Origin: Escherichia coli
Lineage (GTDB): Bacteria > Pseudomonadota > Gammaproteobacteria > Enterobacterales > Enterobacteriaceae
DNA length: 64,000 nt
Direction: 5' to 3' (one strand)
Assembly (NCBI RefSeq): GCF_024298765.1
Contig: NZ_CP101210.1
Every line of letters begins with the position of its first letter. Position 1 is the stretch's first letter. This document shows positions 2,889 through 64,000 of this stretch, piece after piece. The notes beneath the pieces were generated by a model. It was given only the letters and a program-made list of their open reading frames with translations. It made no database searches and had not been told where the DNA came from. Position numbers and translations under genes: made by a program.

Positions 2889-4547
<1,659 letters not shown>

Positions 4548-12932: not shown

Positions 12933-13008
12933 GCCCGGATAGCTCAGTCGGTAGAGCAGGGGATTGAAAATCCCCGTGTCCTTGGTTCGATTCCGAGTCC
13001 GGGCACCA
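12933..13008 (+). tRNA. pheU: tRNA-Phe (anticodon GAA)
   Basis: 76-nt sequence GCCCGGATAGCTCAGTCGGTAGAGCAGGGGATTGAAAATCCCCGTGTCCTTGGTTCGATTCCGAGTCCGGGCACCA; anticodon loop ATTGAAAAT; identical to remembered E. coli tRNA-Phe; pheU assignment from yjdC neighbourhood. Confidence 0.97.
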
Positions 13009-55878: not shown

Positions 55879-56554
55879 TAAAAAAGTCCGTCTTCTGCTT
55901 ACCTGTTTATTTTTCTATCGCTAAGAAAACATAATTAATATTATTTTTATGTGAGCTTATGCACAAAAATAACAAAGTATCTTATCTTCTGGTAGAGATA
56001 CAGGATACAGTTTGTAGGAGCTTTCTTTTTTTGAACAATGATTTGCAGGACAGTTATGCCAACCTAGCAGAATCAGTATCACAACAATAAATGACAGATC
56101 ATACCTGAAATTTGAATTAACAGGCATCATGAATGTCAATAGTCTAAGCGGTTACTACTTACATCGCTTGCATAAATACTAAACACTGACTAGAAAAGTA
56201 TTGGATAACCCCGTCACTAAAAGTAACACTTCGGTTATTTGCTCGGAATGTATCAACGCCAAGATTGTTAGCCGTTACGCCTTATATCACTGGCGCTGAC
56301 AAATGTTTCTTTTCTAATTTACTGAACCGGCGCAGACTTACAGAAAAACACTCCGGCACCGGTGTAATGCCAGTTATAAACAATGTGAATGGAATGACGA
56401 ATCAGTCAGGAAAGAGCTACAATCTGCTGGCTGACCGGAGAGGGTCAGCAGGAAGATGAACGGTAATGTCGCCAGCACCAGGGGCAGGGCCGGGTTCCAC
56501 AATACCAGCGCCGGCATTTTGCACATTGCCAGCGTACCGGCATCACAACACGTT

Positions 56555-56728
56555 TCATGCAGCTGCTCCTCGTGATTCCTCAATTCGCTGCTGCATCCAC
56601 TGCTCCACTTCACTTTTGTACCAGCGGCTGCTGCGGCCCAGCTTGATGGGTTTCGGGAAATGGCCTTCACTGATCAGCTTGTAAAACCATTTATCTGTCA
56701 TACCGGTGAAACTGGTGATGTAGTTCAT
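56555..56728 (-). CDS. alpA: AlpA-family phage/island transcriptional regulator
   Basis: ORF track 56555..56791; internal start gives MNYITSFTGMTDKWFYKLISEGHFPKPIKLGRSSRWYKSEVEQWM, typical Phage_AlpA HTH. Confidence 0.75.
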   Translation of the reverse strand: MNYITSFTGMTDKWFYKLISEGHFPKPIKLGRSSRWYKSEVEQWMQQRIEESRGAAA

Positions 56729-56859
56729 GTCGATCAGGGGATCGTCGGCACGCAGCAACACGCAGTCGTGGCCTGTCATTGAGGTCAACATGGTCAGAAT
56801 ATCCTCTGTGAGATTTATGAAGGTTGTGCGAATGCGGGGAAAGGTGCTGAGCCGTATTC

Positions 56860-57435
56860 TCAGAACGGTCCTGCAGATCCGGGATAGCCGGGATTACCGG
56901 CGAGGCAACGGGCTTCCGGATCGCACACACCACGACGATCGCGGGCGAAATCACTGAACGCCCAGATCAAATCTTTGAGGATGTCTTCGCAGTCCGGTGA
57001 ACGACTGTCCAGCACCACATCCCGGGTTATCTGTTTCTGGTACGGTGCCGCTTCCCCCGGTGACGCGAAGCCCAGTACGTTGCTCCAGGCATCCAGAATC
57101 AGCCGGTCCAGTTCGGGGCCGTCGAAATACTCCTGTCTGACGCACAGCACCACGTGGTATTCCGGCTTTTCCGGATGACGGGTCAGGAGCCAGCAAAGGT
57201 CGCGTCCGGGTTTCGCATTCATCAGCGCACTGACGGTTTCGATAAAATCCATACCAAACCAGGTCTGTCTGCTGTTGAAGGCGTTGTCATGTTCCCACGG
57301 CAGACGAAGCAGGATCCGCCGTATCCGTGAGCCGGACTGCTCACGCAGCGCACGCTCAAGGACGCCGATGACTTTGTTCTGATAAGATGGCCAGAAGGGT
57401 GCCAGGCTATAGTCGAAATAAGGAATAGCATTCAT
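56860..57435 (-). CDS. YfjJ/YagK (inovirus Gp2-like) family protein
   Basis: ORF track 56860..57567; start at MNAIPYFDYSLAPFW gives about 191 aa; downstream of alpA as in CP4-57-type islands. Confidence 0.6.
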   Translation of the reverse strand: MNAIPYFDYSLAPFWPSYQNKVIGVLERALREQSGSRIRRILLRLPWEHDNAFNSRQTWFGMDFIETVSALMNAKPGRDLCWLLTRHPEKPEYHVVLCVRQEYFDGPELDRLILDAWSNVLGFASPGEAAPYQKQITRDVVLDSRSPDCEDILKDLIWAFSDFARDRRGVCDPEARCLAGNPGYPGSAGPF

Positions 57436-57681
57436 AAGATATGTTCCGTTATGCGCAGCCCACAATGCGTCCTGCCCGTGAATGAGCTGACGTGTTATGG
57501 CTTGCGGATGAGATTGATGGAATAAGTGAAGAACTGAAGCAGAACGGGAAGATAAGGGACAGAACACCGGATTCAGGTTCAGGATGAATGATCTCCGTTG
57601 ACTTCAGTTCACATCATTAATCAATGCGGTAAGTTTTTACCGACGGAGTGTTTCCAGGAGCGGAGGCTCAGGCCTTAAGCT

Positions 57682-58248
57682 TCAGAAGTGAGGCTTACGA
57701 GGACGCCCTGCAGCAGGACGTTCAGGAACTTCATTGCAGCCGTAGGCACACAGCCCGTCTTTTTGTTCTTCTTTCGCCAGATAATGCAGGGCACCGCGAA
57801 TATTATCGATGCTTTCAGGATCGTTGTGGCGCACAGGAATGTTGATGTTGTATGCATAATGCGGCTGATATGTACAGCGGTGCGCCGAACCACAGTTATA
57901 CGTAATTGCCTGCCAGCATTCCGCTATCCGCTCCGCAAAGGGATATATTTTTTTAACCCTCTGACGATCGATCCAGAAAACGACATGCGCATGAAAACCA
58001 TGATCAGCCGTCCATTCAATCACCCAGAAGAAACCAACGATATTTTCAAATTGTTCCACCTGCTCCAGCAGCATACGCAACTGTAATTCAAGCCAGCGAT
58101 GATCAGGTTGTAAGAAATCGGGCGTATCTTTCCTGTAGAAGAAATCCATCCGTAAGGCCCGCAGGCAGGAATAGCGTGCCATCATTTGATTGATGTGATT
58201 GTCAAGTAAAGCGGTAAAAAACCAGTTTGGTGTGTAAGATTTAGGCAT
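57682..58248 (-). CDS. YfjJ/YagK (inovirus Gp2-like) family protein
   Basis: 188-aa ORF MPKSYTPNWFFTALLDNHINQMMARYSCLRALRMDFFYRKD...; paralogue of 56860..57435 and 61862..62593. Confidence 0.6.
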   Translation of the reverse strand: MPKSYTPNWFFTALLDNHINQMMARYSCLRALRMDFFYRKDTPDFLQPDHRWLELQLRMLLEQVEQFENIVGFFWVIEWTADHGFHAHVVFWIDRQRVKKIYPFAERIAECWQAITYNCGSAHRCTYQPHYAYNINIPVRHNDPESIDNIRGALHYLAKEEQKDGLCAYGCNEVPERPAAGRPRKPHF

Positions 58249-59665
58249 GTTGATGACTCCTGAAAGTTAATGATGTTTTAAGCTCTGTGAGCGAATTAAT
58301 GCTTTCGCTCATAATCAGATCTAAAACGGTAATAACTTACAGATGGTATTTATCAGGCATGCTGTAACAGAATGGATACGACGGATTATTAACGACACAC
58401 AGCGTTGTGCTGAAGGGTATGAGTTATCTGATGGCATTGTCTATAGAGATGAGATAAACGAGGTGCGAAGAAAATACAGATTCAATACAACACAGTGAAA
58501 TACAGAAAAATACGAACTGTAATCCCGCTGCCAGGCGGTTAGGAAACATATTACAACTATAAGCTCATGATTTGTAAATTTGCTCTCAGTGAGTCTGAAA
58601 AAACGTTTATAAGGTCACCACAATAAACTCACACGCGCTTATTCAATCTGTTTTCCAGGATATGAACGTTAACGACACACGATAGCATAAGACAACATAC
58701 AATGGATGAATAATTTTCACCCAGTACCTTAAACAATACAACCGGCAACAAATATAATCAGAAATTCACTCTGTTAATTCTGTTGTTTATCCTGCGCTGT
58801 TAAACATGACGGAATCATGGATACCTTATCAAAGAGTAAACATTCAGTTAATCTGTGATGACAGAGAAATTGTTTCCAACCAGAATAGTTAAAACACTTC
58901 AGATAAACAATCATTGTTAAGCAAATACAGTTCATGATGGATAAGATTAAAATCAATTGCTGTTTCACTGAAAATGAGAACAGATGGATATCAGCAATAG
59001 CGTAGTAGAGAATAACTTATCCGAACATCATATGAGTTACAGTAATTATGATTGAGGGGGATGGAGTGGATACGATAACAAGAGTAAATAAAGACAGAGT
59101 AAAAGTAAAGGGCAAGTGTAATAATAGTAATAAACCTAAATTAAAATTATCCATGTTTGATGTAAAAATAATAATATACTGACAACCATGAAGGTAAGAA
59201 AAAGAGAGTGCAGGTATCAGGAAGATCTCAGGATATGAAGATTCCCACAGCACAGATTTAAAATTAGTCGAATATAATAAATTTAAAAACCTTAATTAAA
59301 ATGTAATCTCATCCATGGTTAACATGCTCCTGAAAAGGAAAGTTACAAATACCGTATGCTACCAACTAATTACAACAATGATATATGTACATTCAGTAAG
59401 AATACAGATAAAATATTAATACCAACTTCCAGTATCAAGATCGTATCGCGAACTTCAGATGCGCTATGAGGCAGTTCAATTTTTAACTTTCGTTTTCCTC
59501 TTCCTCCCTGGCTTCATATGCATAAGCGACTTGAAAGACCCGATGATAGTTACAATTTCAGGTTGTGGCATGACGATCAATTTGTAACTGAAACAATGAA
59601 CGGTAACGCTGCCATATAAACATCAAAATGCGAGCATTACAGCGACATTGAACCGATTAGATGTA

Positions 59666-60406
59666 TCACTCATAATCAGAACAAGATGATGTATCCTGAG
59701 ATATAAGAAAATCATCAAGAGAACCTCCGGCTTTTATTGCTTCTGCAATAACATTAGGCCGACGACCTTGTCCACTCCAGTACATTGTTTGACCGTTATA
59801 CTCATATCTGTATTTATGCCCTCCTGACACACTTTTTCTGCCTGCCTGTAATTTTTTGCCAAATTCACGTTCGTCGATCATGGTAATGATATAGCGACGC
59901 ATTTCACCCATTCTGAGCTCAATGGCGTCCATCCCAATGAGCTCACCGGTCTTTACCAGACGGTAGTGCTTTGGCCGGTGGGGTTTGGCGGTTCGCTTTT
60001 TGACAAGCAGAGCCTTACCCCGCGAGCTCAGACGTACTGGTACCATCCGCATTTTATCGTGTGCGGTGGCGATCATTCTGCCGATGGTGGAAACACTCGG
60101 GCAGGTCAGATGGCGCTGTGCGCACCAGGGCTTCAGGCGAACAAAAATCTGCTCTTTACCGAGGTTTGGCAGCTCTGTCCTGAGGCGTCGAATCTCTTTC
60201 AGCACATCGGGATGCCAGTGCTTTTTTCGTCGCACCAGAGGTGCCTTACTGTGCGGGATTAGCCCCTCAGGTCCTCCCTTGTTCAGTAACTGACGCCACC
60301 AGTAAAGCGTGCGGCAGGACACGCCAAAGGCTTCAGAAGCCGCAGAAATACCGTGTTTATCCCAGAAGTGCAGAGCCTTCATTCTCATTGTTGCTATATC
60401 AGCCAT
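59666..60406 (-). pseudogene. transposase-like gene fragment (HTH plus start of integrase core), probably degenerate
   Basis: ORF track 59666..60421; HTH region (FGVSCRTLYWWRQLL) then partial rve-like start (GMDAIELRMGEMRRYIITMID) but no complete catalytic core. Confidence 0.4.
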
Positions 60407-60899
60407 CACTGAAAGCCTCAACGCATAATCGGCCGTTTAGGATAGCCAACCATCAGATGCTGCATTTGCATAGTGCAATCTCCCCTTACTTATCCGGAGG
60501 CAATTGCAATATCTCTGTGAACTTACACACAGGTATAATCAATAAGGGCGTACGGAGATTGCCCGTTATTGCTGCAGGATCGGCAGACTGGTTCCCGTCC
60601 TTGCGCATATAACTGTACAACCACAGAGAAAAGCATCAATGCACGCTTTATGTTGCGTCAGGGCAGCGAACGACTCCTTTTGTTGACGACACATATCACC
60701 TTCTGTACTGCCAATTATGGCATTCAGCGTCTCCCCGAGTTTTAAGCTCCTGCTCTTACGAACCAGCGACAAGCAATAAATAACTATGGCAATGAATCTA
60801 ATAACAGCATAAATATGAGACTCATCGATACTCATCGTGATTAGTATAATCGGGGCAGAATTATATTCACTGTCTGATTTATTATTGAGTTAAATATAA

Positions 60900-61352
60900 T
60901 TAAAGTGTTCTCAAAAGTCTGGCTGGATTACCGGCATACACGCCTTTTACCAGCACGGGCTTTGTAACCACACTACCAGCACCAATCACTGCTCCACTGC
61001 AAATTTCTGTGGTTAAAATGGTCGCTCCGCTACCCACTGTTACAGTGTTACCTAATACGATGCGTATCCAGCTTTCTGCAGAGGCATCGGGACCACCACA
61101 CTTAAAAAGATCATTAGCAAAAGTTACGCCATGACCGATGAAACAGCCATCACCTAAAATGACGTTCTCACAGATGAAACTGTGGGACTGAATTCGGCTC
61201 CGGTTGCCAATGATACATCCCTTCTGTATTTCCACAAAGGGACCGATAAAAACATCATCCCCCAGTTCACATTCATAGAGGTTTACTGGCATGACGACTT
61301 TCACATTTTCACCAAATTTCACATCACGAATGCGGCTGTCAATAACGTTCAT
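60900..61352 (-). CDS. hexapeptide-repeat (left-handed beta-helix) acetyltransferase
   Basis: 150-aa ORF with tandem [LIV]-G-x-x-x-x hexapeptide repeats (IGDGCFIGHGVTF, LGNTVTVGSGATI, SGAVIGAGSVV). Confidence 0.75.
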   Translation of the reverse strand: MNVIDSRIRDVKFGENVKVVMPVNLYECELGDDVFIGPFVEIQKGCIIGNRSRIQSHSFICENVILGDGCFIGHGVTFANDLFKCGGPDASAESWIRIVLGNTVTVGSGATILTTEICSGAVIGAGSVVTKPVLVKGVYAGNPARLLRTL

Positions 61353-61861
61353 ATCCGTTGTATCCTCCCTCAGGATGATTCTTATCAGAACATTTCACCT
61401 GTCAGAATATTCCCGGTAATGTGATACAAGAGCCAGTCTCACCGGGTACCATGTGTTATTGCTCGTATCCTTTTGCCCGTTACGAGTGTACAACCGGTTT
61501 TATATTTTGCAATCCAGGCCTGTTACACCAGAGCATCCTCTCACTGCCCCCTCACTGGTCAATCCGGGATTCAAAGTCATCCTCCAGCACTAAACCCCAT
61601 ACCAGTCCTGAACCTTCCCTCGCCAGCAGCCAGACTCCTACTGTTCACCACAATCCTCTTCCGTGAATGGCCGTAAGTGCGCAGCACCAAAATAAATCGG
61701 TACTTCCGATGACAGACAGTGAAAGCGTCAGAGAAATATGAACATGAGAATGGAAGCAGATACATGACTTCAGGACGACTTTTTCAGAAAACGAGCTAAG
61801 GGCGTCAGCCAACGACCTTACCGTGGTATACGCTCAGGCGCCGGATGCCGTTTTACCCGGT

Positions 61862-62593
61862 TCACCTGCCATCCAGCAAACGCCCCGGCCCACGACTGCA
61901 ACCATAATTACGTTGCCCGGAACCGTCATGCTGCTTCGTCTCATATTTCACGAGATAACTGGCTCTGTTCCGGGCTTTCTGCATCGCTTCCACATCACCA
62001 CGCTTGATCCAGAGAACAGCGGCTTCACCAGACTTTTTGTCTGAAGCCTTCCAGGTATCAGAACATCCACCCGACAAAGGCGTGTCATCGGAAGAAGGGC
62101 GAACATCAGACGATGCTGGTTTACGGGAAGGCGTCCACCTGGAAAAATGGACCAGGCCATCGCCTTGCCAGGGCTCAAGATGCAGGGCGCTGCACCATGC
62201 CTCCTGGATCATCGTCGCCAGCGAAGACGGTTCGCTGAAATCCCCGAGCGAGCACCAGGTATCTTTGTTGAGCAGTAATATCACGTGATAATGTTTCCTG
62301 CCATACATCTTGCCGAACTCCCGGCACCAGAAATAACCCAGGCTGGTTGCATGCACACGCTGATTGGCACATCTTTTTTTCCGCTGGTAAGCCTGAATTT
62401 TGGCTTTCAGGGATGCAAAAAAACGAGAAATCACCGCTGAATCCGGATCGGGATCCATGATGGTGACAGGCATATACTCAGGGAAACGTAAATCCACCCG
62501 GATTAACGAGACGGCACGGTGCTGCGCCAGGGCACTGTCGAGAAGGCTGTCAAAACGGGATAACCAGTAAGCATTGTGTATTGGTTGATTCAT
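61862..62593 (-). CDS. YfjJ/YagK (inovirus Gp2-like) family protein
   Basis: 243-aa ORF MNQPIHNAYWLSRFDSLLDSALAQHRAVSLIRVDLRFPEY...; CP4-like island backbone family. Confidence 0.6.
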   Translation of the reverse strand: MNQPIHNAYWLSRFDSLLDSALAQHRAVSLIRVDLRFPEYMPVTIMDPDPDSAVISRFFASLKAKIQAYQRKKRCANQRVHATSLGYFWCREFGKMYGRKHYHVILLLNKDTWCSLGDFSEPSSLATMIQEAWCSALHLEPWQGDGLVHFSRWTPSRKPASSDVRPSSDDTPLSGGCSDTWKASDKKSGEAAVLWIKRGDVEAMQKARNRASYLVKYETKQHDGSGQRNYGCSRGPGRLLDGR

Positions 62594-62984
62594 GATGAGA
62601 GATCTCCGTTGATTTGGATTGACTTCACATCATTAATCAACGCAGTAAAACTTTACGGCATCCGACATTGAGCAATACTACAACTCTCTGATTAAGAGTG
62701 ATTGAAACGGAACAAACCATCCCGGAACGAAAAGATAATCCTGCACACAGCAGCAAAATACGCAACAACAGCATGAATGGATTTAAAAACGACATGGACG
62801 ACGAGAAAAGTCTGAAGGGAAAAGGAGCCACAGAACATTCGAACAAAACACCAGAAATGCAACCAGAACGCTTCCTGGCAATGCAAATCAACAACAACGC
62901 CAAAACCTACAACTTAATCACACAACTCAATCACGGATGCGAATGACACGCTTAAAACCTGTTTACAGATAACGCCGTAACACG

Positions 62985-63026
62985 ATCATCACCATCACCA
63001 TCACCATCACCATCACCATCACCATC
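62985..63026. repeat. hexanucleotide microsatellite (ATCACC/CATCAC) of about 6.7 units
   Basis: Perfect tandem atcacc repeats 62988..63023 with partial flanking units; not in any long ORF. Confidence 0.9.
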
Positions 63027-63460
63027 AGAATCGATTTTCTCATCCCGAAAATGTTACGTTTCACTACGCACCATAAAAACGATTAACCATCGATAACGTA
63101 AATCTCATCTGAATCAAAACACCAAAACCGTTCATCACACTTTCGCAATGCAAGAAGAAACCTCATGACAAAAAGAATGACCTTACACGGAAAAGAAAAA
63201 CGTCAGGAATCGTTAATGCCTCAATCTGATTGTTATCAAAACATCCAGAAAGTCGTTTAACAGAATCGTCGTAAGCACATCGAAAAGAACGTCAGATTAC
63301 TTCAGGAAAGTTCGGGTTGATTTAGCGTAAAGATACTTTTCTCAAGCTAACGTCGAAACTCGAAATCTCAGGAAAGGTTAAACGTAACATCAGTAAAATC
63401 GAATAGCAGATTGATTGCTTAAACAGAAAGGTTTTACAGCAGCATTAAACTGATTTAGTT

Positions 63461-63494
63461 AACGTAAAGATTTACTAAACGTAAAGATTTACTA
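63461..63494. repeat. two perfect tandem copies of a 17-bp unit (acgtaaagatttactaa)
   Basis: Direct tandem duplication; related copies (ttagcgtaaagatac, ttagttaacgtaaagat) nearby at about 63316 and 63455. Confidence 0.85.
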
Positions 63495-64000
63495 AACTGG
63501 ATGTGTATCAGATCAAACAATGTGTACAGCAATGCTTAATGAAAATACTTGTAGAATTGTTTATGAGAAAGCGTGTATAACACTTACTGAAATGCTTAGT
63601 TAAATACGTGTATGTTTGGTAAAACACTTAAGTAAAATACGTGTATAGTACCATTCCCGACATTCTCAACATCTTCAGACATCCATGCAGACTGAGTGTT
63701 GATTTCAGTTTTTCACGGCCAGCATGGATCTTTACTGTTTAAAAAACATACAGATTTACTCTGAAATTATTTACCCAGGCCTCCCTGAAAAGACCATCCG
63801 GAGCATCCCGTTCGTCAGCTTCCATGTTGTCTTTTACCCCGGAAAGTGATCGCATTTTCCAGCCAGAATGACAGCCATACTGATTATGACGTCTCTCCGG
63901 CCCCTTCACATATAACATTCATGTCAGTCATTTCTTACTGCCTCACTCACCGGAATTCTCCATGCCGGATGAAGCAATTGTTCTGAACTGAGCAGAAGCA

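Follow-up and report, generated by a model that had tools for sequence, protein, structure and literature searches.

The stretch of DNA analysed here (64,000 nucleotides, referred to hereafter as the window) is E. coli chromosome, and the closest complete genome is that of ACN002, a different strain that is 99.7% identical over positions 55963-64000. An island is inserted at tRNA-Phe (12933..13005), with a cargo of microcin export, contact-dependent inhibition (CDI) and type I restriction-modification genes; its distal end is a CP4-6/CP4-57-type set (GTPase, DUF905, DUF932, antirestriction, RadC-like, DUF987 and YeeU antitoxin). The hexanucleotide tract that concerns us had been placed near the island end in the first-pass annotation, which is true only in a loose sense: the distal gene set lies beyond the window end, which leaves the tract short of the end of the island, and in the closest complete genome the island runs on for at least 7.7 kb after the window stops, with GTPase, DUF932, antirestriction, RadC and YeeU genes. 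The tract sits within a divergently oriented intergenic region of ~2 kb (62594 to about 64608), and the features at and beside it are as follows.

61862..62593, minus strand: YagK/YfjJ-family gene, 243 aa, "inovirus Gp2 family" (Pfam, RefSeq).
62594..63720, no strand assigned: conserved non-coding block of ~1.1 kb around the tract (alignment identity, genome matches).
62698..62946, plus strand: ORF of 82 aa (57 aa in some genomes), "hypothetical protein", left of the tract (RefSeq/PGAP annotation).
62962..62989, plus strand: sigma-70-like match TTTACA-16 nt-GATCAT (consensus match only).
62963..63064, minus strand: 33-aa ORF with GTG start, running as (VM)n through the tract (ORF list; PGAP annotation).
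62978-62980, plus strand: stop codon TAA closing the poly-His frame (frame translation).
62987..63027, no strand assigned: perfect hexanucleotide microsatellite/VNTR (TRF, sequence, shuffle run length, homologue polymorphism).

The YagK/YfjJ-family gene is the nearest gene to the tract, which lies on its upstream side at ~395 bp from the start codon; its product matches PF11726 (E 2.5e-35) and PF23343 REP_ORF2-G2P (E 3.2e-8). An inverted repeat (TTGATTcATGATG … CATCATtAATCAA, 62585-62640) covers the Shine-Dalgarno sequence and start codon of this gene, and would pair the AUG into a predicted mRNA hairpin; it alone among the intergenic blocks has a consensus fold that is strong (about -14 kcal/mol), and since its sequence hardly varies, no covariation is seen. 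A second, more divergent Gp2-like gene (188 aa, ~57680-58250, corresponding to 3083-3649 of the 17-kb locus L001) lies ~4 kb upstream in the island, its product matching PF23343 and PF11726 at scores under the Pfam cutoffs, and a 63-nt stretch at 57583-57640 bears a weak likeness (76% identity) to the start of the intergenic region. To the right, the next plus-strand gene is ~1.6 kb from the tract and encodes 284 aa. We could not uphold its annotation as "RepB family": the protein has no Pfam match, and a RepA/CopB-like match to its C-terminal part is weak (20.7 bits vs a cutoff of 87). With this label so weakly backed, a replication-origin reading of the intergenic region stays speculation.

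The DNA surrounding the tract is nearly as well conserved as the gene beside it. Mean pairwise column identity (14 loci, 50-nt bins) is 0.77-0.96 over most of 62600-63350, compared with 0.90-1.00 in the gene, and the tract lies at a conservation dip between two well-conserved sub-blocks. The ~1.1-kb block is always linked to the YagK/YfjJ-family gene, in CP4-6/CP4-57-type E. coli islands; a 1.1-kb query matches 1877 of 5426 E. coli genomes, nearly always on the chromosome and at as many as 8 places in one genome. E. coli K-12 CP4-57 and CP4-6 lack the module (blastn of 61800-64000 gave a single 32-nt match), and a literature search on YfjJ/YagK/YagJ returned nothing on this intergenic region. 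The block holds no conserved ORF. The non-coding sequence that surrounds the tract is probably functional; for the block, roles as an unstructured RNA, a replication origin or a regulatory region are all conceivable. About a third of E. coli genomes have it, often more than once, and of block and tract it is the block that holds the greater interest.

The tract itself occupies 41 nt (62987..63027; 6.8 units) with a perfect period of 6. Its unit (ATCACC/CATCAC) gives (ATCACC)n when the plus strand is read and (GGTGAT)n for the minus; we write the tract as (CATCAC)6.8, the letters 62984-63028 being GAT-(CATCAC)6-CATCA-G. Tandem Repeats Finder (TRF) recovers this same interval (period 6, 6.8 copies, 100% matches) with a score of 82, the highest among the 20 arrays that it found in the window. 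A direct scan of the window likewise gives a perfect period-6 run of 41 nt from 62987, and at the other periods from 1 to 11 perfect runs do not exceed 22 nt. In 200 mononucleotide shuffles of the window, the longest period-6 run averaged 13.7 nt and reached at most 18, and runs as long as the tract are expected ~6e-17 times. The repeat is genuine and far beyond chance length, with 6.8 perfect copies of a short (<=6 bp) unit arranged head to tail over 41 nt, where shuffling yields no more than 18. The first-pass annotation had recognized this repeat and given its size accurately (about 6.7 units), with coordinates (62985..63026) that are off by 1-2 nt. Gur-Arie et al. 2000 reportedly found long, perfectly pure tracts to be uncommon in E. 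coli.

We then considered whether the tract could encode protein. None of the three plus-strand frames has a start codon before the tract: the His frame (...TP* HD H13 Q...) runs from TAA through CAC GAT into 13 His codons with no start, and the (IT)n and (SP)n frames each have a stop followed by no ATG, GTG or TTG ahead of the tract. The only ORF that spans the tract is the minus-strand one, with the translation MKRNIFGMRKSILM(VM)6IVLRRYL. This could be taken for a small gene in which the tract is an in-frame repeat, the 6-bp steps keeping frame, and whose product (a basic N-terminus followed by hydrophobic (Val-Met)n) would resemble a small membrane peptide or type I toxin. The minus frame is indeed open in nearly all homologs, in repeat-less relatives it also encodes a basic then hydrophobic peptide (VKRNVFRIRTSILILVVFVLVAG…), and PGAP calls it as a gene, "hypothetical protein", only where the allele is long (L002, L007 and L019). 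Against such a gene stand the GTG start, which has no Shine-Dalgarno sequence, and the variable sites, which fall 4/6/3 across codon positions 1/2/3 without third-position excess. The ORF also occurs in 37 unique versions that differ in C-terminus and range from 18 to 48 aa in length; an in-frame stop breaks one of them just ahead of the KSIL motif and the start is lost from another, interrupted alleles put the frame into (GD)n, and in the commonest metagenome allele the ORF terminates after MGMIV. The codon-position pattern and the broken ORF integrity led us to reject the small-peptide hypothesis, whose chances we rate as very slim, and the (VM)n ORF is probably not a gene.

Neither as poly-His nor as (VM)n is the tract thus part of a started ORF under purifying selection, and it is non-coding on both strands, as the first-pass annotation had thought probable from a His frame closed by an upstream stop and a short minus-strand (MV)n peptide, both of which we see. 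The plus-strand ORF to its left (62698..62946) is broken in homologs by 11-nt and 13-nt deletions/insertions, such that its reading frame is not conserved, and has no Pfam match; these patterns suggest that the 82/57-aa plus-strand and the (VM)n minus-strand annotations are both annotation artefacts.

Comparison of homologous loci reveals that the number of units varies. In 16 E. coli loci fetched from complete genomes, and in the window, what lies between two conserved flanks, TTACAGAT and CAGAATCGAT, takes the following forms.

L010-L013: allele without repeat, CAAAAACCACCAAYAT.
L009: CATCCCCAT.
L008: CATCCC-CATCAC-CAT.
L005: 4.5 units, imperfect.
L022: intermediate allele.
L020, window, L003, L004, L006 and L019: perfect arrays of 5.8, 6.8, 7.8, 8.8, 9.8 and 13.8 units, respectively.
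L002, L007 and L021: alleles with a 2-nt phase-shifting interruption.

The perfect runs correspond to 35, 41, 47, 53, 59 and 83 nt, beside which stand the imperfect or interrupted alleles; homologous loci from complete genomes and metagenomes taken together also show 2.5- and 4.5-unit alleles, and observed tract lengths overall span 9-83 bp. Of the ~1080 E. coli genomes that match a 251-bp query, the best 60 have match lengths of 245, 251, 257, 279 and 293 bp, apart from a few at 248-250 bp. Metagenome contigs that retain the conserved right flank (55 in all) divide into 30 with no repeat, 11 with 1.5 units, 5 with 2.5 units and 9 with 4.5-6.5 units, and several of these alleles combine CATCCC and CATCAC units. 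The first-pass annotation had proposed that length might vary by slipped-strand mispairing, and had named invariant copy number across strains as the observation that would speak against it; copy number is clearly variable, and the graded allele series, with its 6-bp steps between isolates, is as slippage predicts.

Pairwise comparisons inform on the tempo of this variation. Over 1800 nt of flank, L002 and L007 show 0 substitutions, yet their tracts are one unit apart; the window is separated from L020 by one unit and 2 substitutions and from L019 by seven units and 6 substitutions. Tract length, in these alignments, turns over faster than flank sequence; the locus thus combines whole-unit length differences between conserved flanks with length changes that outpace flank substitutions, two of the properties of a VNTR. 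Within the best 60 matches, near-identical isolates share an allele (six isolates in the Res13 pig set, three in the 729_ poultry set, and the GPEC1209/1210 pair), which speaks against very high slippage rates, as far as assembled genomes, in which minority variants are invisible, can tell.

The distribution of the repeat points to an acquisition within one lineage of the module. A protein-based scan of species-representative genomes returned just two MAG contigs, with 87-91% identical proteins; both are repeat-less, from which it follows that the repeat is derived and has expanded in one module lineage. An exact 27-mer of the conserved flank found no match in the species-representative genomes. 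The locus is present in a minority of E. coli, and its expanded form is rarer still. One homologous locus (L016, JAEYLX010000008.1), in which this Enterobacteriaceae module is present with 91% protein identity and 76% DNA identity over the intergenic region, is a contig of 6.5 kb that was assigned to a "Bacillota bacterium" MAG; the contig is probably mis-binned.

These comparisons also dispose of a technical origin, namely that the tract is an assembly error or His-tag vector contamination. The sole point in favour of this is the sequence CATCACCATCACCATCAC, a common His6 coding sequence. The flanks are natural sequence, conserved across hundreds of complete and independent E. coli chromosomes as well as metagenome contigs, and the intermediate alleles form a graded evolutionary series; the comparative data refute an artefact, to which we attach a negligible probability.

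Several other repeats lie in the same intergenic region. A 17-bp tandem repeat (GATTTACTAAACGTAAA, 63452-63497, 2.7 copies) has one copy missing in 6/7 other loci of the alignment shown, constituting a second duplication polymorphism, and a related motif, CGTAAAGAT(T)TAC, occurs three times to the right of the tract (including at about 63326). AACGTAA is found five times between 63054 and 63485. Further right, a direct-repeat array (63499-63660) places RYGTGTAY (GGATGTGTATC, CAATGTGTACA, AGCGTGTATA, ATACGTGTATG and ATACGTGTATA) inside units of ~33-44 bp whose number varies between homologous loci, giving it an iteron-like look. Just left of the microsatellite there is a 13-bp tandem duplication (ACAACTCAATCAC, 62909-62934, 2 copies, 92% match). 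With further duplication polymorphisms present, in the form of the 17-bp tandem duplication and the variable ACGTGTAT-unit array, the region appears to be generally slippage-prone.

The first-pass annotation had further suggested that such a repeat might alter promoter spacing, an idea that is not supported here. Our promoter and terminator scan (62300-64000) found no terminators and one sigma-70-like site, as against 3.7 +/- 2.1 expected in shuffles. The -10 hexamer of this site adjoins the first repeat unit, which would put the repeat in the transcribed leader and not in the spacer even if the site is real, and in the alignment this -10 is missing from repeat-less homologs. Moreover, tract lengths that span 9-83 bp are too varied for the tract to be a 16-19 bp -35/-10 spacer, and the repeat was found neither in such a spacer nor in an activator-core gap of a phase-variable promoter. 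An effect of the tract on the spacing between more distant sites is conceivable.

Such an effect would underlie a contingency or tuning locus acting at the level of DNA, in which tract length sets both distance and helical phase (6 bp being ~0.57 turn) between upstream regulatory sites in the right-hand conserved block and either the YagK/YfjJ-family gene's promoter or one on the plus strand, and slippage generates heritable, reversible expression states. The location between conserved blocks of a divergent 2-kb intergenic region would suit this, as would the many alleles, the promoter-like element adjoining the tract, and the AACGTAA (x5) and CGTAAAGAT(T)TAC (x3) copies to the right, which are candidate protein-binding sites. 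We nevertheless hold it to be unlikely: no promoter prediction has the tract in its spacer, the sole consensus match is below chance expectation and confined to this lineage, the lengths spread continuously over 9-83 bp without preferred classes, the near-identical Res13, 729_ and GPEC1209/1210 isolates share alleles, and the majority of module copies have no repeat at all.

The composition of the region raises the alternative that the tract acts in RNA. The plus strand of 62650-63250 is A/C-rich, with GC skew to -0.40 and AT skew to +0.48, and base frequencies over 62700-63300 (A 0.41, C 0.26, G 0.15, T 0.18) are unusual for non-coding E. coli DNA. Rho favours C-rich, G-poor, unstructured RNA, and the tract might act in plus-strand RNA as a Rho-loading (rut-like) site at which more units would give stronger termination, silencing transcription that heads to the downstream island genes. 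On the plus strand the tract is 49% C with no G, it is embedded in a C-rich, G-poor, apparently unstructured stretch of ~310 nt (62834-63145) where the C/G ratio is 2-5.8, the skews near it are about -0.4 (GC) and up to +0.48 (AT), plus-strand consensus folding energies are near zero over the region, and a promoter-like site lies directly upstream. Weighing against these points, the role presupposes plus-strand transcription here, the next plus-strand gene is ~1.6 kb away, and repeat-less relatives share the composition, such that the repeat is not needed for it; we regard a Rho-loading role as very unlikely.

Searches for structured RNA were likewise negative. At the gathering threshold, Rfam 15 returned for the whole window only the tRNA at 12933, and a permissive search of 62400-64000 returned only an archaeal C/D-box family (18.4 bits vs a gathering threshold of 42), which we read as chance. 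Single-sequence fold z-scores are unremarkable (minus strand 0.02, plus strand -1.97), and no conserved structure near the tract emerged from a sliding RNAalifold analysis of 59 unique homologs.

A broader proposal is that the repeat serves as a tuning knob of the island, in which slippage would heritably adjust either the Gp2-like (rolling-circle Rep-like) gene or downstream read-through, via the length of the C-rich, G-free, unstructured segment or the spacing of the conserved blocks, in the long conserved leader beside that gene. If true, this would be a contingency locus in E. coli, a species that to our knowledge is not known for them; we consider it quite doubtful.

The explanation that we favour, and think likely, is that the tract is a polymorphic non-coding hexanucleotide VNTR, made by slippage and near-neutral. 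The repeat itself, its polymorphism, its derived state and its lack of coding are shown by the data above; slippage as the mechanism and near-neutrality are what we infer from them. Its history would begin from an ancestral site without repeat (…GAACAAAAACCACCAAYATCAG…), at which one module lineage may have gained a proto-repeat, GAT-CATCCC-CAT-CAG. A C-to-A change would have given rise to CATCAC units, gain and loss of 6-bp units would then have grown the tract to at least 13.8 units, and CATCCC unit variants and the 2-nt phase-shifting interruption would have arisen occasionally. Length change along this path would shift the distance between the two conserved sub-blocks upstream of the YagK/YfjJ-family gene by up to ~70 bp, and as the element evidently tolerates spacing changes of this order, we infer that the tract is near-neutral rather than a switch. 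The surrounding DNA is, however, nearly as conserved as the gene, so spacing changes need not be neutral, and the purity of the tract could reflect selection as well as recent turnover. Greater importance would attach to the tract only if unit number alters expression of the Gp2-like gene or of island genes; we know of no expression phenotype for it.

The tract belongs to a well-known class, the 6-bp E. coli VNTRs used in MLVA. These include the generic loci CVN014, CVN015, CVN016 and CVN017 and the O157 loci O157-3, -9, -17, -19, -25 and -37 (PMC8143711, PMC3768571), and their variability has been documented (PMC3877011, PMC3519732). The likeness extends to the 6-bp unit, the multi-allelic unit steps between conserved flanks, the partial location in accessory DNA and the null or absent alleles in many strains; the likeness to the O157-specific loci is by description, rather than by primer or motif sequence. 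Unlike those loci, the present one is found in only a minority of E. coli, and in expanded form in fewer. With as many as 4 mismatches allowed, none of the 20 primers of the ten generic loci (CVN001-004, 007, 014-017 and CCR001; PMC8143711 Table 1) matches near 62987 in the window or in L001 (17 kb), and the locus therefore differs from those ten. A literature search combining the hexamer motif with VNTR and E. coli gave nothing relevant. The locus can serve as a high-resolution marker for typing those E. coli strains in which the island module is present.

Promoter repeats of Neisseria and Haemophilus, such as TA in the hifA/hifB promoter spacer and TAAA upstream of nadA, offer a second point of reference. 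Like these contingency repeats, the tract is an intergenic array of short units upstream of a gene, with slippage as its likely means of length change. Unlike the hifA/hifB and nadA repeats, it far exceeds a -35/-10 spacer and stands ~395 bp from the start codon; it also differs in that no promoter element is shown flanking it and in that clonal isolates share alleles.

The closest parallel to its apparent origin is the "birth" of microsatellites from proto-repeats, a process described mainly in eukaryotic genomes. Here too the alleles are stepwise, from none through 1.5 imperfect, 2.5 and 4.5 units to long perfect arrays, with the difference that the eukaryotic series compare species lineages, whereas the present one is drawn from paralogous/xenologous copies of a bacterial island module. 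In this respect the tract is a clear bacterial example of a microsatellite caught at every stage of its origin.
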